A stretch of 54,142 nucleotides of DNA from positions 1 through 54,142 of IMG/VR virus record IMGVR_UViG_3300022936_000002. One strand, given 5' to 3'. The first letter of the stretch is position 1; each line of letters starts with the position of its first letter. The stretch comes from a virus (lineage: Duplodnaviria; Caudoviricetes). The position numbers and the translations under genes are program-made. Under the pieces are notes generated by a model. That model made no database searches. It was not told where the DNA came from and was given only the letters and a program-made list of their open reading frames with translations. Below, in pieces: positions 1 to 12,582 of the stretch.

Positions 1-127
1 CCTGCCCGCCGGTGACAGCTTTCAGGTTGATCACTTCGCCGATATCTTCCTTCTCGAGCTCGAAGAATCTTAATGCAGGAGTGACGAGGGCCGCATATTC
101 GTCGGTACCATGCCCGACCATCGCATC
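1..127. repeat. 127-bp terminal direct repeat (copy 1); circular assembly overlap
   Basis: 1-127 is identical to 54016-54142, and an ORF reads in frame across the join. Confidence 0.97.
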
Positions 128-3959: not shown

Positions 3960-4610
3960 CTATTCGCCTCTTACCTCGACCATCGGAACATCCGGAAGCT
4001 CGATGCGGTAGTGCTCGACCGATCCCGCATCTACCCATTGGTGAAAAGCTTCTGCGCGAAACTCGTCGGTAGCGAACCGCGCAGGAGTATAAAATTCGAA
4101 CGTCGCGAGGATTGAGGCATCCGCAGCCGGCGCGCTCGTAAAGGTAGCGATTCCCGTCGCATAGTTCACGCTGTAATTTGCTTCCGGAACAGGTGTTCCG
4201 TTGATCGCAAAGAACACCGTTCCCGACTTCGGATAGGTGATGACGCGCTTGATCACGCCTCCGACTCCATCGTCGTAATATTTGTAGATCTGGAACTGAG
4301 TCTTTACGCCGTCGGCCTCATCACCGTCGAAGAGCACGATGGAACTGCCCGATACCTTGTAATCCATCCAATCTTTGACCAGAAATGCCGTTTCCCTGCC
4401 CCTGACGGTGTGGAAAAACGCGATAAGCGCGTCAACATCCGCCTTCGTCTTTACCGAGTATTTTGCATCGAAGGATCGAAGCGCGTCCTGCCAGTTGGCA
4501 TTTCTCGATTCGTGGCCGCTCGCACCCGTCGTGATGGTCGTGTTATAACGAACCGTATGACCCCAACGCCCCACCGAAAGCGGATATATTTTATCTAGCT
4601 GAAGACTCAT
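3960..4610 (-). CDS. Distal tail protein, DUF2460-like
   Basis: SGHESRNANW, FFHTVRGR..FLVKDWMDY, FEFYTPARF motifs; directly after tape measure. Confidence 0.88.
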   Translation of the reverse strand: MSLQLDKIYPLSVGRWGHTVRYNTTITTGASGHESRNANWQDALRSFDAKYSVKTKADVDALIAFFHTVRGRETAFLVKDWMDYKVSGSSIVLFDGDEADGVKTQFQIYKYYDDGVGGVIKRVITYPKSGTVFFAINGTPVPEANYSVNYATGIATFTSAPAADASILATFEFYTPARFATDEFRAEAFHQWVDAGSVEHYRIELPDVPMVEVRGE

Positions 4611-7600
4611 GAATTACGCCTTTCCTCCCACCTTGCTTTTGCCATTCCGTCACGAACCCCCCGGCTTGCTGCATCCTGGACCTGACGGGGGTTGCCGCCG
4701 GGCGCGTTAACGTTTACGTGGATCGTCGGGCCGTAGGTCGTGTTATTGTTCGTCGAGGACATGCCCGAGTACGCGCCGACCATTCCACCGCCCGCAAATG
4801 CAGGCATTTGAAGATTGTTCACTTTTTCGAAAAAGTCTCTGCCCCAGAACCGGACGGCGCGGGCGGTGTTCACGAACTCGCCGTTAGATAACCGGGCGAA
4901 TATTGAATCGGACGTTCCGCTGCCAGGTCCCGAGATAAGTCCGCCGGATGCATGGCCGATGAGACCACCGAGCCCGCCAAGCGCGCCCTCTCCAACAGAA
5001 TGCGCCCCTGTTCCTAAACTAGTGGTCGTGGGCGTGCTTGCTGCCGCGCTAATGATCTTCATAATGGCCTGATAGACCATGACTTTTATGAGCTCCTGAA
5101 TGATACCTTGAACGAGTTGAGCAAATCCCTGAAGCATCGAAGTAAAGAACCCTTTGAATGTTCCGTCCCATTTTGCGACGCTGGTCGAGATAACATCAGC
5201 AACGCCAGACACGGCATCCGCCATACTGTCCTTGAAAGCCGTCGAAAATGAGACGGATCGCGCTTGCATCATCCCTATCCGATCCATAAATGTTTCGCTA
5301 TCGGCAATCGTTTTCTCAGTAATTGCTTGACGTATTTCAAGGATGCGCTGCAATTGCGCCGCTTCAAGGATTAATGGTTCCAACGTAGAATAATTGGCTA
5401 TGCGTTGCTTTAAGTCGGCGATGGACTGATAGGTGCCGATTTGATTCAATAGCGCGTCGCTCTCCGTCTTAACGGCAAAAAACTTTTCGGCTCCCACCGC
5501 CTTGATTTGATCGATGGTCGCCTGCAAGCCTTCCGGGCTTCCAAAGAAGGAAGCTAGATCATCCTTATCCTTGCCCTGCTTGAGAGCTTCGCGGGATTGG
5601 CTGAGCTGTTTGATAGCGCCGTTGAGTTGCAGAATCGCCGCGCTCGTTTTGGGTGCTCCGTTTTGCTCAAGATCAGCGAGGTTTTTCTGAAGAGATTGAA
5701 TCACCTCGTCATATTGCGTAACGGCATCGGTACCTTCTCCGCCTCGACTAATTGCGGCGCTCCGGTTAGCCATTTGCGCCGCTATGGCCGATTTCATCTT
5801 AACTTTCTCTAATTCGTAGGCATTGTTAATACGAATTTTCTCGGCTGCAATCAAATCGTTCGTCGTGCCAAGCTCGGTATCGAGTTGCCCGATCTGCGTG
5901 TCATAGCGCAGATTCGCACTTAGCTTCTGAGCTTCGTAAAACCCTTTAGCCCCTTTGGTCCCGTCTCCGATAGCAGATGCAAGTTGCAGAAACTGAATTT
6001 TCACTTTATCGGACAGCGTGGTAGACGCGCGGAAAAATTCAACTAGCTTCGTGGTAGATTTGCTGCCAAAAGTGTCGGGGTTAAAATAAATGTCCGCGAG
6101 ATTGCCTCCTAGATCGCCAATGGCTTTCAACGTGCTGTTAAACGCGTCTCTCCTGGATTGTAAACTGCGTACAAGTTGGTCGTTCTGCTTCTCGGATATA
6201 TCAAGCAATCGACGCCCGCCTTCTTCTGCGAGCTTCGCGACGTCAAGGTTCATTCTAGCGTTGATATTTACACGCTCTTCCGCTGAGAGCGACTCGTCTT
6301 GAAGTTGGAGCGAAGTTTGTTCGCGGATTATGGCGCCGATCTTTGCGTAGGCGCGCTGCGTCTCGTCCGTAATTCGAGAAAATGCCTCCGTTGTTGCCGT
6401 GCCCAGAGAAATGGACGAATCGAAATTAAACGCGGAAGTATCGAGATTAAAGGAGACGGATTCAGACGCAATCTGCTTGAATTCCAGTAGGGCAGACCGG
6501 CGTTGCTTTAGAATTTTGTCTTCCGCTTCTGCTATCTGTTTCGCTGTATTGATCTCATGGAGAGCAAGGTCGGTACTGATCTTCCCAATAGTGCGCGCTT
6601 TATCGTCTTCGATCGCCTCTCGCTGCTTTGACGTCAATCCCAAGATCGCAAGCTCGCTCCGGAAAAATCTTGTCGCTTCCGCTAACTGTTTTTCAAGTCC
6701 CTGTTTTTTTACTTTTGCCAGCTCCCTTACGCCGTCGAGCTCGTCTTGCGATGTCTTTCGTACGCGAGCCGACACCATGGCTTCGTTAACCCGGTTAAAG
6801 CTGTCCGTAATCGCCGACTGAGCGGAGTAACCCCTTTTCCATGTTTCCAATATTTCGGCCGCCGTCTGCTTTGCGCTCTGAGCGGCCTTACTGTCCGCAT
6901 CCTTTAGTTTTTGGGCCTTTTCTAACGCCGTGGTGATCATCTTGTCACCTTCTGTCCGCATCATATTGCCTGCGTCACGCATTGCCTGCCCGGCTTTCGG
7001 ACCGAACATAAAATCATCGCCCGCGTCCTTCAGTCCTCGCATGACGACTAAAAACGGTTGCAGGATGGGCGAAACGTCACCCCGGAAATTCTTCTTGAGC
7101 TCTTCGATGATGATTCCGCCGATGCCCTCAAGTCCTTTCCCAATACCCTCGCCGATTTTCTCGCCGATTACCTGACCCGCCGCATGCCAATCACCGCCCC
7201 GGCTTTGTATTTCGCCGATGGTATCGCTTAAGGCATTATTAATGGCATTTCCCCATGCCGCAAACGTAGCCTGGTTGTCCGTGAGCGCCTTGGATGCAAG
7301 GTTCATCCCTGTGGTGATCGCGGGCGCGAAAGCGAGCGTGAATCTGGCTGCACTGGTTTTTGCCTGCAGGCCAACCATGTCAAGTGTATCGCCGAATTTA
7401 TCTGCTGCGACTATCGTTTCTTTATCAAGAATCAGTCCGAGATCGCGAGCACGTTTGATCACGTCCGGAATACTTCCGCCGAATTCCTTAAGAAAGGGAA
7501 TCATATCGGCACCGGAACGACCAAACCCCTCCTGCGAGGCCTTCATCTGCTCTATGCCTTCGGGGTATTTGAGAATTGTCTGATAAGCCTGCCCCAGTGC

Positions 7601-8326
7601 AGTTTCGAGGTCGTTAGACGTGACGCCAAGGCCAGCCATGGTCTTCTTAGCCTCTTCGTTTCCTTTTTTAGCACTACCGAGCACGCGCACGAACTTGTCG
7701 ATCGATCCGGACACCTCGTCGAAAGATACTCCGCCTTGCGTTGCCGCAAAATTCAACGCTTGCAGTGTGTCAGTAGAGAGGCCCGTCTTCGCTGCTGCAT
7801 CATTGATCATCGACCCGAAGTCTGCGGAAGCCTTTGTTAGCGTGAAAAGCGCGCCGGCGGTAGACTCGAATATCTGCGCGGCCTGGCCCGCCACTTGTGA
7901 TACAGCACTAAAGGCAGCGCCAACACCTGTTAAGACTTGACCTATCTGCGCGAACTTGCCTAGCTGTGACGGGGGCTTGAAGTCTGCGAGACGCGCAGCC
8001 GAATCCTTTAATCGGGTATTGAGCGCATTAGTCGCCCTTTCGGTAGAATTGATCGCACTCTGAAATTGTTTACTATTAATTGCACCACGCGAAAATGCAT
8101 CGGCCGCCGAGCTGAGTTTTTTCTGGGTTTCCGATACCCTCTCTGTCAGCTTCTCATACGATCTAGCTGTGACTGCGGTGGTTTTCCCCAGGTGAACGGC
8201 TTCAGCTTCCTGCTCAGTGATAGCGCGCCCCGTCCTTCGCAATGCCGCCTCGGCATCCCTCAGCGAACCCTCAAACGAATTGGTGTCGGTTCGGAATTCT
8301 GCAAATATTTCGAAAGCGTTTGCCAT
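4607..8326 (-). CDS. Tail tape measure protein (1239 aa)
   Basis: Long Ala-rich helical ORF; C-terminal ASGGLISGPGSGTSDSIFARLSNGEFV motif. Confidence 0.92.
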   Translation of the reverse strand: MANAFEIFAEFRTDTNSFEGSLRDAEAALRRTGRAITEQEAEAVHLGKTTAVTARSYEKLTERVSETQKKLSSAADAFSRGAINSKQFQSAINSTERATNALNTRLKDSAARLADFKPPSQLGKFAQIGQVLTGVGAAFSAVSQVAGQAAQIFESTAGALFTLTKASADFGSMINDAAAKTGLSTDTLQALNFAATQGGVSFDEVSGSIDKFVRVLGSAKKGNEEAKKTMAGLGVTSNDLETALGQAYQTILKYPEGIEQMKASQEGFGRSGADMIPFLKEFGGSIPDVIKRARDLGLILDKETIVAADKFGDTLDMVGLQAKTSAARFTLAFAPAITTGMNLASKALTDNQATFAAWGNAINNALSDTIGEIQSRGGDWHAAGQVIGEKIGEGIGKGLEGIGGIIIEELKKNFRGDVSPILQPFLVVMRGLKDAGDDFMFGPKAGQAMRDAGNMMRTEGDKMITTALEKAQKLKDADSKAAQSAKQTAAEILETWKRGYSAQSAITDSFNRVNEAMVSARVRKTSQDELDGVRELAKVKKQGLEKQLAEATRFFRSELAILGLTSKQREAIEDDKARTIGKISTDLALHEINTAKQIAEAEDKILKQRRSALLEFKQIASESVSFNLDTSAFNFDSSISLGTATTEAFSRITDETQRAYAKIGAIIREQTSLQLQDESLSAEERVNINARMNLDVAKLAEEGGRRLLDISEKQNDQLVRSLQSRRDAFNSTLKAIGDLGGNLADIYFNPDTFGSKSTTKLVEFFRASTTLSDKVKIQFLQLASAIGDGTKGAKGFYEAQKLSANLRYDTQIGQLDTELGTTNDLIAAEKIRINNAYELEKVKMKSAIAAQMANRSAAISRGGEGTDAVTQYDEVIQSLQKNLADLEQNGAPKTSAAILQLNGAIKQLSQSREALKQGKDKDDLASFFGSPEGLQATIDQIKAVGAEKFFAVKTESDALLNQIGTYQSIADLKQRIANYSTLEPLILEAAQLQRILEIRQAITEKTIADSETFMDRIGMMQARSVSFSTAFKDSMADAVSGVADVISTSVAKWDGTFKGFFTSMLQGFAQLVQGIIQELIKVMVYQAIMKIISAAASTPTTTSLGTGAHSVGEGALGGLGGLIGHASGGLISGPGSGTSDSIFARLSNGEFVNTARAVRFWGRDFFEKVNNLQMPAFAGGGMVGAYSGMSSTNNNTTYGPTIHVNVNAPGGNPRQVQDAASRGVRDGMAKARWEERRNS

Positions 8327-8461: not shown

Positions 8462-8803
8462 TTATTCGATGCCCCACACGCGAATATAGTACTTCCCCTT
8501 TCCGTCAATCGTAATATTGACCGACTCTGGCGGCACATCAATAAGAAACGTTCTGCTGAGAAACGCCTCGTCGGTATATAGCAACTGAAAAGAAAATCCT
8601 CCGTCCCATCCATTAATGTGAATGCTTTGACTCGAACCTACATTATTACTACTAATGCCGATACGAATCTGCTTGTATTTTGCTGCATTAAAACTCGCGA
8701 CTTCAACGAAGGTCCCAGGCGTTAAATCTTTAAATCCCTTGAAGATTAAGGGTGCCGCCACGCAGTTTGCCGCAAGCAACAAGCTAAGAAAAAGAGCTTT
8801 CAT
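8462..8803 (-). CDS. Small secreted hypothetical protein
   Basis: Signal-peptide-like MKALFLSLLLAANCVAA; AGGAGG RBS upstream. Confidence 0.7.
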   Translation of the reverse strand: MKALFLSLLLAANCVAAPLIFKGFKDLTPGTFVEVASFNAAKYKQIRIGISSNNVGSSQSIHINGWDGGFSFQLLYTDEAFLSRTFLIDVPPESVNITIDGKGKYYIRVWGIE

Positions 8804-8840
8804 AAATCAGCCTCCTAAAAGTGCAACCGATTATAAACTA

Positions 8841-8868
8841 AAAAGGCGGCTAATTAAAGCCGCCTTTT
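8841..8868. terminator. Intrinsic (likely bidirectional) terminator directly after GGY-NN array 1
   Basis: AAAAGGCGGC-TAATTAAA-GCCGCCTTTT perfect stem with A/T tails. Confidence 0.85.
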
Positions 8869-8871
8869 CCC

Positions 8872-8961
8872 TTGCCCTACCTCGCCTGACCAAGCCTGAC
8901 CAAGCCTAACCAAGCCGTGCCCCGCCATTCCGTACCATGGCGCGCCCCGACTCACCAGGCC
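8872..8961 (-). ncRNA. (GGY-NN)18 pentamer array 1; putative guide RNA
   Basis: GGCct GGTga GTCgg GGCgc GCCat GGTac GGAat GGCgg GGCac GGCtt GGTta GGCtt GGTca GGCtt GGTca GGCga GGTag GGCaa; strict 5-nt phase, between the HNH stop and a terminator. Confidence 0.85.
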
Positions 8962-8979: not shown

Positions 8980-9273
8980 TTACTCCCACAGGTGTTTACG
9001 CCAGTCCGGCCCAATTATACCCTTTTTTAGCGCGTTCGCGATCATCCCCCTGTGTCTATGATCGAGCCTCAAAACATGATGCATGCGGCAAAGCACCCGC
9101 AGGTTCGATATATGATTCGTGCCCAGCTTACCAGATCGAATATGGTCACAGTGGAACTCTTCAAAGGTGACGGGATGCTTGCCATAGGGGTACTGGCACA
9201 TCCCGCCATCCCGCTCATAGACGGCCTTTCTCATTTCTTGCCAGATCTCTCGCGGCGGTCGTTGTCGCGGCAT
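8980..9273 (-). CDS. HNH endonuclease
   Basis: VYERDGGMCQY..HCDHI..GTNHISNLRVLCRMHH; start overlaps stop of the RAMP-like gene (TAATG). Confidence 0.9.
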   Translation of the reverse strand: MPRQRPPREIWQEMRKAVYERDGGMCQYPYGKHPVTFEEFHCDHIRSGKLGTNHISNLRVLCRMHHVLRLDHRHRGMIANALKKGIIGPDWRKHLWE

Positions 9274-9956
9274 TATTCCTCAATCTCAAACGAAACGGTC
9301 TGGAAACGGCCGAACCCGATAGCCCGGGCATCCCCAAGACCAACTAGGACTCCGGCATCATTTAGCACACTTTCCATTTGCGCCCGGTTAACCAGCGTTT
9401 TATCCCAGAGAATCTTAAAGGTACACTCCCACCCCGGCGAAGCGGCCAAACGATAACGCACGTTTCGTCCTTTGGTGCTAGGGTTACGAACAGAGCGCAC
9501 ATCGAGATAAACAGGTGCGCTCGTATCGCGTGACGGATCTTCGGCCTTCGTGATATCGAATTTGGCCTCAAGGTCGCCTGCTTCATACAGCCCGATACGG
9601 GGTATCTGCAACCCACCCTCCTTGTTTGCGAACACGGGATAACCGGGCATAAACCTATCGAGCAAAATCTGATCATCCAAAACTTGAAGTGTTGCGGCAA
9701 CGTCTGTCTGAATCGACCCCTTTCCCTTTTTCGTATATTTTGCCGCATTACGCAAGCACGAAAAGATATACGACCCATCGACAAAAAGCTGCCCGGTTTC
9801 TGTAACCATTGCCGATTTTTTCCACTCTTCGGGATCGTTTCCGGCAACGCCCGTGCGTTCCTGTTTTTCGAGAGGCAGTGATGCCTCGGTGAATCTGTGT
9901 TGTAGCAGGGGCCTTACGCCCCTGATCGTGATTGCTGCTCTAATAATATTCGACAT
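9273..9956 (-). CDS. Solo Cas7/RAMP-like protein (Vipr-like putative RNA-guided effector)
   Basis: N-terminal ITIRGVRPLLQH strand, LFVDGSYIFSCL, GWECTFKI, C-terminal G-rich loop AGVLVGLGDARAIGFGRF; no cas1/cas operon nearby. Confidence 0.8.
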   Translation of the reverse strand: MSNIIRAAITIRGVRPLLQHRFTEASLPLEKQERTGVAGNDPEEWKKSAMVTETGQLFVDGSYIFSCLRNAAKYTKKGKGSIQTDVAATLQVLDDQILLDRFMPGYPVFANKEGGLQIPRIGLYEAGDLEAKFDITKAEDPSRDTSAPVYLDVRSVRNPSTKGRNVRYRLAASPGWECTFKILWDKTLVNRAQMESVLNDAGVLVGLGDARAIGFGRFQTVSFEIEE

Positions 9957-9979: not shown

Positions 9980-10588
9980 TTACCAACATTCTGGACATTT
10001 TGTGCGTTTCTCTCTGATTAACCATCGCACCGACGAAAGGAACGGCTTACTGCCCTTTCGCGTTGCCGAGCACACGCTGCACGTTGCCTCTATTTCGTTA
10101 ATACCCATCCCCAATTCCTCATCTGCCTTCGCACTCGACGGGAATTCGGTGTAGGCAATACTTCCCGCTATAACGCCTAGAAGAACCCATTTGCATCTAT
10201 TTCGATACGGCCCGCGGCGCTTATTAAGAACGGCAGTTGTCCCGTTCGGCTTCGCGATACACGTATCCCCAAAATTGTCGTACGCGTAACCCACCAACAC
10301 TGGCGGGCGCACATCAGCTGATAATTCCACGTCCTGACGCTGCCAAATCGTGAGCGGTTCGCTATCACCGATGCGATCTGAGTACCCCGGCCTCATCAAT
10401 AAGCACGTTCCGTTTTCAATGCCGACGGCGCGCAAGCTATCGTCCTCGATTTGTACTACAGCGTGCAGGCCTTGCGCCTTCAAGACCGAATCGCTTGACT
10501 GATTAGTTGCACCAATATCTTTACCGTGCCGCCGAATAAAGCCGTTTTCAATCTTTGTGACTTTTTCTTTTGTGGTAATATTTCTCAT
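9980..10588 (-). CDS. Hypothetical protein: degenerate S24/LexA-like domain plus C-terminal Zn ribbon
   Basis: VQIEDDSLRAVGIENGTCLLM resembles V.GDSM..GI..GD; CSVC..CPEC. Confidence 0.55.
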   Translation of the reverse strand: MRNITTKEKVTKIENGFIRRHGKDIGATNQSSDSVLKAQGLHAVVQIEDDSLRAVGIENGTCLLMRPGYSDRIGDSEPLTIWQRQDVELSADVRPPVLVGYAYDNFGDTCIAKPNGTTAVLNKRRGPYRNRCKWVLLGVIAGSIAYTEFPSSAKADEELGMGINEIEATCSVCSATRKGSKPFLSSVRWLIREKRTKCPECW

Positions 10589-10658: not shown

Positions 10659-10901
10659 TTAACCGAATAGCTCCTTAATCATCCCGGCCAGTTTAAGAAA
10701 TGCCGTTGAAGGCATATAGCCGTAAGCAATGCGTTTTACATTATTAGGATCGACGTGCTCAGCGACAAATCCGTGATGACGTGTTGAGTGGACAACAACG
10801 GAACCATATTGCGTTTCGATTTCCCCTGCTCGACCAGAGCCGACAACTTGATCTAACTTTCGTAGTGTCGGCCAGTGCTCCATGTCTATGTTATTTATCA
10901 T
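10659..10901 (-). CDS. Hypothetical protein, first gene of the leftward cassette operon
   Basis: 80-aa ORF with GAGG RBS downstream of a consensus promoter. Confidence 0.7.
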   Translation of the reverse strand: MINNIDMEHWPTLRKLDQVVGSGRAGEIETQYGSVVVHSTRHHGFVAEHVDPNNVKRIAYGYMPSTAFLKLAGMIKELFG

Positions 10902-10946: not shown

Positions 10947-11039
10947 ATTTTACATTACGCGTATATACTTGTCAATAGTATATCGTATAGATATATCATT
11001 TATTTTCTTGACGCGTATATACGTGTTGTGCTATACAAT
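10947..11039. promoter_or_regulatory. Divergent sigma70 promoters, each containing ACGCGTATATAC (putative RHH operator)
   Basis: Minus strand TTGACA(10975-10970)-17-TAAAAT(10952-10947); plus strand TTGACG(11008-11013) then TATACAAT; 12-mer at 10957-10968 and 11011-11022. Confidence 0.75.
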
Positions 11040-11043
11040 AGGT

Positions 11044-11208
11044 ATGGCGAATAAAGGGAAAGAAAAACTGGAGAACGACGCCAATGTTTCGGTAAAGCTC
11101 CCATCCGCGCTGCTTGAAAAAGCGCGGGCGAAGTCTCGGGAAACAGGCGTGTCCATATCTTTTATTGTCCGGAAGGCTTTAGAGGAATGGGTAGCTAAAA
11201 GTAATTAG
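11044..11208 (+). CDS. Ribbon-helix-helix (CopG/Arc-like) regulator
   Basis: NVSVKLPSALLEKARAKSRETGVSISFIVRKALEEW; probable ATG at 11044. Confidence 0.85.
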   Translation: MANKGKEKLENDANVSVKLPSALLEKARAKSRETGVSISFIVRKALEEWVAKSN

Positions 11209-11226: not shown

Positions 11227-11296
11227 GGCGTGGTACAGCCAGGCTGGGAGAGGCGGGGCACGTTGTGGTGGGGCGGGGTTTGGTTTGGCAAGGTTT
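11227..11296 (+). ncRNA. (GGY-NN)14 pentamer array 2; putative guide RNA
   Basis: GGCgt GGTac AGCca GGCtg GGAga GGCgg GGCac GTTgt GGTgg GGCgg GGTtt GGTtt GGCaa GGTtt then T-rich tract; same GGCAAGG 3' end as array 1. Confidence 0.82.
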
Positions 11297-11309: not shown

Positions 11310-11627
11310 CTACTCTAGCTTCTTTAGCTTTTCTAGTATTTTTTTGCGGAGCGTTTCTTTACCCTGCCACGCCGCGGGTATAAGATAGGGCTGTGACGCC
11401 ATGCGGCTTGTGCCGAATTCCACGAATCCGGCGTGGGGGGCCGTGAACCCAACGCGTGATACATTGCCTTCGTGCTCTACCTGCATAGAATCGCGTAGTT
11501 CCCCTGTTCGTACAGGTGCGTTGCGCTGAGCGGTCACGCCAACCTCTTCGGCGGTTTCTACGCGCGCTTCATCTACCGCCGCCTTCGCCGCCGCCGTGAT
11601 CACGCGGATCCTGCTTACGATTCTCAT
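11310..11627 (-). CDS. HK97 gp10-like tail completion protein
   Basis: APVRTGELRDS..HAGFVEFGTSRMASQPYLIPA. Confidence 0.9.
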   Translation of the reverse strand: MRIVSRIRVITAAAKAAVDEARVETAEEVGVTAQRNAPVRTGELRDSMQVEHEGNVSRVGFTAPHAGFVEFGTSRMASQPYLIPAAWQGKETLRKKILEKLKKLE

Positions 11628-12165: not shown

Positions 12166-12582
12166 TTAGTAGGTCGAAGTTGCAATAGCGCCGTCCAGGG
12201 TGATCTCGGCCGTCAGTTCCATTACCGAATTGATCTCGATAGGATTGCCCACCTTGTGAATATGGACCGCGCCGGTGTACTTCGGATTGCCGCCCGTGCT
12301 GCCGATCGGGCCGAACTGGATGTTAACGGTGTTATCGCCGAGCAGGGCAGCGTGCAGCTGCGTAAAGATCGCGGCACTGTAGTAAAACGTCACCGAGAAC
12401 GTGGCACCGTACAGCCCTTTAAGGTTCGCCTTCGAGCCGTTGTTATTGAAGGTGTTCGCTTCCAGTAAGTCGCGCTCGATGTCATATCCTGCGCTCTTTA
12501 CGCTATTGGATAAATCAACGAGGGTTGAGGGTGTTCCGGTCGATCCCAGACGAAAATCTAAATTCTTTCCAACTGTAGGCAT
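12166..12582 (-). CDS. Major tail (tube) protein
   Basis: 138 aa directly upstream of chaperones; QFGPIGSTGGNPKYTG, ends LDGAIATSTY. Confidence 0.75.
   Translation of the reverse strand: MPTVGKNLDFRLGSTGTPSTLVDLSNSVKSAGYDIERDLLEANTFNNNGSKANLKGLYGATFSVTFYYSAAIFTQLHAALLGDNTVNIQFGPIGSTGGNPKYTGAVHIHKVGNPIEINSVMELTAEITLDGAIATSTY

Follow-up and report, generated by a model that had tools for sequence, protein, structure and literature searches.

VIPR (for Viral Interference Programmable Repeat) systems are CRISPR-like systems described in two preprints of 2026 (bioRxiv 10.64898/2026.04.26.720920, 10.64898/2026.04.26.720927). Their reported parts are a small RAMP protein with an RRM core, a G-loop and a thumb (Vipr), an accessory gene (vap) and vrRNAs of alternating GGY and NN, and the reported code is one in which successive NN pair with DNA while one base is skipped per unit, mostly the wobble base of a codon (bioRxiv 10.64898/2026.04.26.720920). 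The reference system is that of the Escherichia phage SUSP1, a VIPR of type II comprising vipr, vap1 and vrRNA1-4 (bioRxiv 10.64898/2026.04.26.720920). SUSP1 Vipr is reported to hold G1, G2 and Y3 of each repeat through residues H17, R138, D177, W178 and R179, and engagement of DNA is described in the VIPR preprints as starting at the 3′ end of the guide and spreading to the 5′ end. In the published accounts the vrRNA 3′ tail is invariable and structured, being a pseudoknot in the SUSP1 clade, and ‘staggered arrays’ are described in which one array is processed into two vrRNAs. A vrRNA is expected to be a small RNA of roughly 100 nt that co-purifies with Vipr. Natural targets are reported to follow a threshold of at least 80% NN identity, and the published systems are described as having no self matches above it.

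Other VIPR systems are associated with nucleases. Types III-V, which belong to this group, are reported to be enriched in defence islands, and in the legend of fig. S21, which lists Vap domains for types II, III and VII, HNH is one of those named (bioRxiv 10.64898/2026.04.26.720920). SUSP1 guides are reported to target a satellite that carries tape-measure and baseplate genes, the key mapped target being an excision recombinase (bioRxiv 10.64898/2026.10.15.759431). Here we describe a phage locus in which two arrays of GGYNN pentamers accompany a distant Vipr homolog and an HNH endonuclease gene, and we examine what the guides encode.

Results

Two pentamer arrays bracket a cassette in the tail module

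The window, by which we mean the whole stretch of 54,142 bp that was analysed, is a complete virus record with direct terminal repeats. Within its tail module two pentamer arrays, inverted relative to each other, bracket a small cassette of genes (Table 1). The NN list of array 1 is CT GA GG GC AT AC AT GG AC TT TA TT CA TT CA GA AG AA, in exact agreement with the NN given in the earlier note that first drew attention to this array. Two of its scaffolds are degenerate (GTC in unit 3 and GCC in unit 5), the GGY scaffold is retained across the whole 3′ half, and the last unit is GGCAA-GG, the constant end in the clade. When the window was searched for four pentamers plus a closing GG with one mismatch allowed (the GGNNN pattern), 25 matches were found, 12 of them in array 1, 10 in array 2 and 3 elsewhere, whereas 100 shuffles gave a mean of 3.5 and a maximum of 12. 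The period-5 GG pattern is far beyond chance. The hairpin that directly follows array 1 probably forms the 3′ tail of vrRNA-1 and serves as its intrinsic terminator.

At 8884-8916, array 1 contains a tandem repeat of 10 nt that spans units 10-15 (plus-strand sequence GCCTGACCAA; 3.3 copies, 95% identical), which suggests local duplication as one way for guide units to arise.

On one side the cassette is flanked by the gp10-like gene, with the putative chaperone and the tail-tube genes beyond it, and on the other side by the tape-measure gene. The tape-measure reading is drawn from PF20155 in two of four homologs (P0007 and P0010) and from a PHROG tape-measure match for the long open reading frame (ORF) of a syntenic related locus, L010. 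A place after the tube and putative chaperone genes is unusual for a gp10-like gene in a siphovirus-type tail module. The 202-aa protein reached Atlas feature scores of at most 0.82 and a TM of about 0.5 to S24/LexA-like peptidase models, a weak lead. The N-terminus of the 113-aa protein is hydrophobic and, judged by eye, signal-peptide-like; at the equivalent position L010 has an unrelated 93-aa ORF. A blastn search of the cassette against cultured phages gave no match, and an Rfam search of the cassette gave a single sub-threshold match (E 0.7). Among sequencing runs, one alone was listed as containing this DNA, probably the metagenome it came from, and no RNA run was.

Table 1. Positions of the arrays, genes and near-cognate sites in the window, and near-cognate sites in related records
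Feature	Position	Strand	Description
Tape-measure gene	4607..8326	-	1239 aa; large tail-module gene; read via homologs and synteny
Near-cognate self site for vrRNA-2	5142..5179	-	20/26; tape-measure residues 1050-1062, WDGTFKGFF; skipped bases at codon position 3
113-aa protein	8462..8803	-	Between vrRNA-1 terminator and tape-measure gene; no family match
Hairpin	8840..8869	-	12 pairs and T-run; directly 3′ of array 1
vrRNA-1 repeat tract (array 1)	8870..8961	-	18 GGYNN units and closing GG, read 8961 to 8870
HNH endonuclease	8980..9273	-	97 aa; accessory (vap) gene; overlaps vipr stop codon
vipr	9273..9956	-	227 aa; RAMP-type RNA-binding protein; C-terminal G-loop GLGDARAIGFG
202-aa protein	9980..10588	-	Same operon; C-terminal CxxC...CxxC; no Pfam or PHROG match
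80-aa protein	10659..10901	-	First gene of minus-strand operon; no family match
Sigma-70-like promoter site	10947..10975	-	TTGACA, 17-nt spacer, TAAAAT; 11/12 positions; upstream of operon
Ribbon-helix-helix (CopG/Arc-like) gene	11044..11208	+	Divergent transcription; vrRNA-2 just downstream
vrRNA-2 repeat tract (array 2)	11227..11293	+	13 GGYNN units; ends GGCAA-GG, then T-run
HK97 gp10-like tail-completion/neck gene	11310..11627	-	Directly adjoins cassette, after tube and putative chaperone genes
Tail-tube gene (major tail protein)	12166..12582	-	138 aa; PHROG major-tail-protein family matches
Near-cognate self site for vrRNA-1 units 1-11	12167..12198	-	17/22; last ten tail-tube codons and stop
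Near-cognate site in relative	284 bp from array		22/34; antisense in large-terminase gene
Near-cognate site in relative	0.9 kb from array		21/32
Near-cognate site in relative	2.6 kb from array		17/24; antisense in tape-measure gene
Near-cognate site in G003	0.8 kb from array		23/30, reached by 0 of 100 shuffles; just upstream of vipr

Identification of the locus as VIPR

A profile of 14 members of the 227-aa protein's family matched PDB 36pp_D, ‘SUSP1 Vipr protein’, with an E value of 1.5e-9 over residues 6-190 of 202, and this was the sole profile match at E<=10. As a single sequence the 227-aa protein matched SUSP1 Vipr at E 2.7e-4 (24 bits). Residues H20, R169, D209 and R211 align with the published SUSP1 GGY contacts H17, R138, D177 and R179, respectively. 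H20 and R169 are invariant in all 14 sequences, and 90% or more of the sequences, among them the window protein, retain D209 and R211, while the position of SUSP1 W178 is occupied by Ala in the window protein and by Gly in most relatives. The AlphaFold model of the window Vipr was poor (mean pLDDT 57.9).

A VIPR locus is expected to have at least four tandem GGY/NN pentamers beside vipr, an accessory gene, and no self-targeting at 80% or above. The window has 18 and 13 units in its two arrays and an HNH gene in the accessory position, and, scored at full length against the phage's own genome, array 1 reaches at most 21/36 and array 2 at most 20/26 (77%). At the 3′ ends a constant (GGYAA)n-GG is common in the clade; a hairpin and T-run follow array 1, and there is no clear hairpin after array 2. 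A CRISPR-Cas system would instead be recognised by an array of 25-40 nt repeats and spacers together with cas genes. Tandem Repeats Finder detected no CRISPR repeat-spacer array in the cassette, and Pfam and PHROGs gave no Cas family among the ten proteins tested. Every structural feature of a VIPR that was amenable to test is present at this locus. Because Vipr homology, the GGY contacts, an HNH Vap and the GGY/NN code are found together, array 1 is almost certainly a vrRNA of a VIPR system. On the same grounds the earlier reading of the array, as a guide RNA whose NN are read with one skipped base per unit, coincides with the published VIPR code.

On paper, tracts of GG with a period of 5 would also be compatible with something other than a guide, such as a two-tier G-quadruplex, a Rho-loading C-rich tract on the opposite strand, a TRAP-like protein-binding RNA or the terminal repeats of a mobile cassette, and the two arrays are indeed inverted and flank the cassette. 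We consider the probability of any such reading practically negligible, since the neighbouring gene shows sequence homology to the Vipr of known structure, its repeats are built of the very GGY/NN unit described in the preprints, arrays accompany the gene in related loci as set out below, and the NN carry codon-phased information. TRAP-like RNA, a Rho-loading tract, a G-quadruplex, telomere-like ends, Chi-like sites and TIGR-Tas had been dropped as candidates, the neighbouring protein having matched the solved Vipr.

Compared with type II of SUSP1, the window likewise has a small RAMP homolog with His, Arg, Asp and Arg as GGY contacts, is borne by a phage, and carries GGY/NN pentamer guides on both sides of the genes; its near-cognate sites are codon-phased with the skipped base at the wobble position, and no self site reaches 80%. 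It differs from SUSP1 in several ways. The accessory gene encodes an HNH nuclease and not the DNA-binding vap1, the arrays have 13 and 18 units (up to about 20 in relatives) compared with the 9-16 reported for SUSP1, and the 3′ end appears to be a constant GGCAA-GG with a plain terminator hairpin, the pseudoknot tail conserved in SUSP1 not having been seen. W178 is replaced by Ala or Gly, and the direct pairwise similarity is only 24 bits. By sequence, the locus is a distant member of a kind already described.

The locus resembles types III-V in combining Vipr with a predicted nuclease and with guides pointing at viral sequences, but it is set within the tail operon of a phage whose genome is complete, with terminal repeats, and not in a cellular defence island. 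With Cas7 of Class 1 CRISPR-Cas it would share, going by the published descriptions, the RAMP fold, a G-rich loop, one protomer per repeat unit and periodic base flipping. Unlike the Cas7 systems, it has no CRISPR repeat-spacer array in the window, no other cas genes were seen, and its code is noncontiguous, with a period of 5 nt on the guide and 3 nt on the target.

Vipr, HNH and the arrays in related loci

We found 13 homologs of the 227-aa Vipr in the viral contig collection, with 47-56% identity. GGYNN arrays lie beside vipr in 12 of these 13 loci, one to three in each, the exception being the 4.9-kb contig L018, and an HNH homolog is next to vipr in all 13. The related arrays are close to the gene and nearly all on its strand; they reach up to about 20 units, 17-20 being the norm in the clade, and commonly end in GGCAA-GGCAA-GG. 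Their NN differ from locus to locus while the GG are conserved. The 80-aa, 202-aa and 113-aa proteins of the window have no homolog in the 13 related loci.

In some relatives there are three arrays, of which one separates vipr from the HNH gene and the other two follow the latter. Arrays were located at 3975-4076, 4520-4596 and 4663-4719 in L013 and at 2631-2702 and 2760-2816 in L017, and the spacers of about 60 nt between arrays in these two loci may be structured tails.

Units 1-10 of array 1 spell a tail-tube end that fits a relative better than self

The earlier note had matched the first 11 NN of array 1 to the 3′ end of the phage's own tail-tube gene. This match was confirmed on the minus strand (12198-12167) with 17/22 positions, in codon phase, with the skipped base at codon position 3 and the match ending on the stop codon. 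It is the best site in the window for the sub-pattern of the first 11 units, the runner-up scoring 15. With the full 18 units the same site scores 20/36, and another site in the window reaches 21. The chance expectation of about 0.04 that had been attached to the match is arithmetically right (P(>=17/22) of 4.0e-7 times 108,284 positions gives 0.043) but ignores that the first 11 units were chosen post hoc. When a local score over any contiguous run was used, 144 of 300 unit-shuffled and 141 of 300 letter-shuffled guides reached the observed value. The self match alone is no more than chance, because about half of the shuffled guides score equally. What stood of the earlier observation was therefore the array, its NN list and the in-phase 17/22 match, and what fell was the significance of the self match taken by itself. 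The remaining units had been said not to match self, and this was also the case; at shifts from −4 to +4, units 11-18 score 2-8 of 16 at the tube site and have no match anywhere in the phage's own genome. That they cover divergent intergenic DNA, as put forward in the note, is an assumption.

The support for the tail-tube match stems from orthologs and not from the self match. Four close tail-tube orthologs (P0002-P0005, 69-78% identity) were found in the protein database, and their C-termini are LDGPVTPGTYA, LDGPITIGVY (P0003), LDGAITVGTFA (P0004) and LDGVLSTGTYA. The peptide encoded by units 1-10 is L-[D/E]-G-A-[I/M]-T-[I/M]-G-T-[F/L]. For scoring, ortholog residues were converted to the first two bases of their codons, so that the comparison is one at the protein level and not with ortholog DNA. 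On this basis P0004 scored 19/20 (or 18 with a Leu codon of the form TTR), whereas the phage's own C-terminus, LDGAIATSTY, scores 15/20 against the same ten units. Among 1000 shuffled guides placed on the four orthologs, the best 10-unit run never exceeded 16. P0004 and self differ at six bases within the ten codons, and five of these differences shift towards the guide. A look-elsewhere bound, made generous by allowing four orthologs of every position, both strands and nine offsets, was 2e-4 for 19/20 and 6e-3 for 18/20.

A profile search widened the tail-tube family to 18 members. The best placement of units 1-10 was the homologous C-terminal site in 17 of them, and P0004 remained the best-scoring member. 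P0004 has an extra Ala codon where unit 11 (TA) would face the stop codon. It had been predicted that a tail-tube ortholog would end in a sequence resembling LDGAITIGTF, and since P0004 ends in LDGAITVGTFA at 19/20, this prediction was essentially borne out; the end of P0003 can be compared with it as well. Collectively, these data point to units 1-10 as spelling the last ten tail-tube codons of a P0004-like allele of a close relative, and the 3′ end of the tail-tube gene of such a relative is probably the present-day target of vrRNA-1. As in the case of SUSP1 and its satellite, the guide would be directed against an element whose structural genes are homologous to those of the carrier and would leave a codon-periodic footprint; unlike in that case, the sites decoded here are themselves tail structural genes, and the element that is targeted is unsampled.

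Array 2 matches the tape-measure gene

Array 2 had been cited as parallel support for array 1, and its self match proved the stronger of the two. The in-phase match to the tape-measure gene lies over the motif VAKWDGTFKGFFT, and its score of 20/26 was reached by no more than 4 of 300 unit-shuffled and 6 of 300 letter-shuffled guides. Array 2 decodes to V-T-[H/Q]-W-[D/E]-G-T-V-G-G-[F/L]-[F/L]. The motif WDGTFKGFF is kept in all four tape-measure orthologs, and the Val-Gly that array 2 encodes occurs in none of the four. In scans of the viral collection, exact seeds of units 4-12 gave no stretches and those of units 1-8 gave six, the best scoring 18/26.

With both guides at hand, it can be asked whether they act on the phage's own tail genes, tuning or timing expression of the tail operon through partial matches (77% each). 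For each guide the best or nearly best site in the whole genome falls in these genes, in phase, at distances of about 0.9 and 3.3 kb from the cassette. However, both sites lie below the 80% threshold of natural targets, above which the published systems are described as free of self matches, and the phage would presumably be harmed if its HNH partner acted on its own DNA. The ortholog allele also fits far better than the phage's own, at 19/20 versus 15/20, which is the signature of aiming at non-self. We regard regulation of self as very unlikely.

Full-length searches and the 3′ half of array 1

Searches of the viral, metagenome and genome collections, made with exact seeds and hence of limited sensitivity, yielded no target that has at least 80% NN identity along the entire guide. 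In the viral collection, exact 8-unit seeds of array 1 retrieved 6 stretches for units 1-8, 15 for units 6-13 and 57 for units 10-17 (78 in total), the best full score being 23/34. A 10-unit pattern (units 1-10, YT being allowed in unit 1 and RT in unit 7) retrieved 6 metagenome and 11 genome stretches, none of them tail-tube, with a best score of 24/36. The peptide context of several of these stretches is one that we take to be typical of ABC-exporter membrane domains. The earlier note had proposed a search of related phage genomes with the array written as a regular expression, expecting hits across a tail-tube stop codon; in the DNA collections this approach returned solely chance, non-tail matches. 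None of the three contig collections (viral, metagenome, genome) contained a tail-tube ortholog, and neither the tube protein nor Vipr had a tblastn match in cultured phages.

The 17 exact 10-unit matches in the metagenome and genome collections all lie in open frames, as they would if the guide targeted a host gene, the motif L-D/E-G-A-I/M-T-I/V-G-T-F/L being found in bacterial genes too. However, a handful of host matches is expected by chance, because an exact pattern was forced over hundreds of billions of bases (596 billion in the genome contigs). None of the matches extends past its seed, 24/36 being the best, while the tube gave 19/20 among only four orthologs. A host target is thus extremely unlikely.

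Another reading accepts array 1 as a VIPR vrRNA but takes the tube resemblance to be a relic or a partial, non-functional match, or places the true target in an unsampled sequence other than the tube; as a relic, the guide would have decayed and its 3′ half would have been overwritten by tandem duplication. The unexplained 3′ half matters because engagement in SUSP1 is reported to run from 3′ to 5′, so that its 3′ units are important. By analogy with SUSP1, a match confined to the 5′ ten units would be at the wrong end for the start of engagement. The tandemly repeated units 10-15 may represent a recent duplication rather than guide, the phage's own genome holds no match to the 3′ units, the collections scanned yielded no full-length target, and the self match is at the level of chance. 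On the other hand, chance cannot account for a score of 19/20 against an ortholog allele at the homologous position; the 5′ half at least was derived from, or selected against, a tube allele. The GGY scaffold is also intact through the 3′ half, and an array of 17-20 units is usual in the clade. We consider this reading doubtful, though a real possibility. As for the earlier interpretation as a whole, the guide code and the fit to a tube ortholog were upheld, and the regular-expression test, units 11-18 and a full-length target did not bear it out.

Near-cognate sites in relatives lie near the cassette in some cases

Whole records of five carriers (G001-G005, the records behind L010, L014, L015, L012 and L009), with 11 arrays in all, were scanned for near-cognate sites. 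In 4 of the 11 arrays the best genome-wide site was within 3 kb of the array (Table 1), and the remaining 7 gave nothing beyond shuffles. The array of G003 that scored 23/30 may be directed at the VIPR loci of rivals. The skipped base falls on codon position 3 in each of the five coding near-matches checked, two in the window, two in L010 and one in L014. The cassette adjoins the tape-measure gene in the window, L010 and L012 and the large-terminase gene in L014 and L018, and it is near an integrase gene in L019.

Discussion

We propose the following model for vrRNA-1. It would form the 3′ end of a minus-strand operon containing p80, p202, vipr and the HNH gene, and the hairpin terminator directly after GGCAA-GG would close the transcript. 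Array 1 may give one long vrRNA or, like the published staggered arrays, be processed into two. By homology with the SUSP1 complex, one Vipr protomer would sit on each GGY and display the adjacent NN, and the resulting filament would read double-stranded DNA with one base skipped per unit; its footprint would therefore follow codon periodicity. Most probably the guide would recognise the tail operon of a close relative that competes with the carrier, or that of a satellite with such tail genes, and the target DNA would then be silenced or be cut by the HNH partner. The carrier would escape its own guides via NN mismatches, its own tube allele differing at 5 of 20 positions. Guides written against tail-gene alleles of close relatives or satellites are the best-supported account of the locus. 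What is observed are the homology to Vipr, the repeat architecture and its conservation in relatives, the codon-phased near-matches and the fit to an ortholog, whereas transcription and processing of the RNA, the filament, silencing or cutting and the identity of the rival are inferred.

A more far-reaching possibility is that the VIPR-HNH cassettes of this clade are RNA-guided homing elements, a natural gene drive among phages. Guides would then be aimed at the flanking genes, in the alleles carried by close relatives that lack the cassette. When both phages infect one cell, the HNH partner would cut the rival's genome close to the empty site, and recombinational repair from the carrier would copy the cassette, along with the carrier's flanking markers, into the rival. 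Homing would fit the finding that the near-cognate self sites of both window guides lie in tail genes on either side of the cassette, as well as the 4 of 11 relative arrays with a best site within 3 kb and the wobble-phased skip in each of the five coding cases. The varied genomic contexts of the cassette are those expected of a mobile unit. The main text of two VIPR preprints never uses the word ‘homing’. We put this idea forward as a speculative and rather unlikely one.

The VIPR concept is months old, and according to the preprints its experiments rest on two clades, enterobacterial and Pseudomonas. The present locus adds a distant VIPR from an uncultured leaf-litter phage, with an HNH partner and a position inside the tail operon of a complete genome, and its guides appear to decode to the carrier's own tail genes as found in close relatives. 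The pairing of one guide with a self and a non-self allele (15/20 versus 19/20) could be used to measure how many NN mismatches are needed for self-immunity. The locus also raises the question of whether nuclease-type VIPR cassettes may spread by cutting next to their own insertion site.
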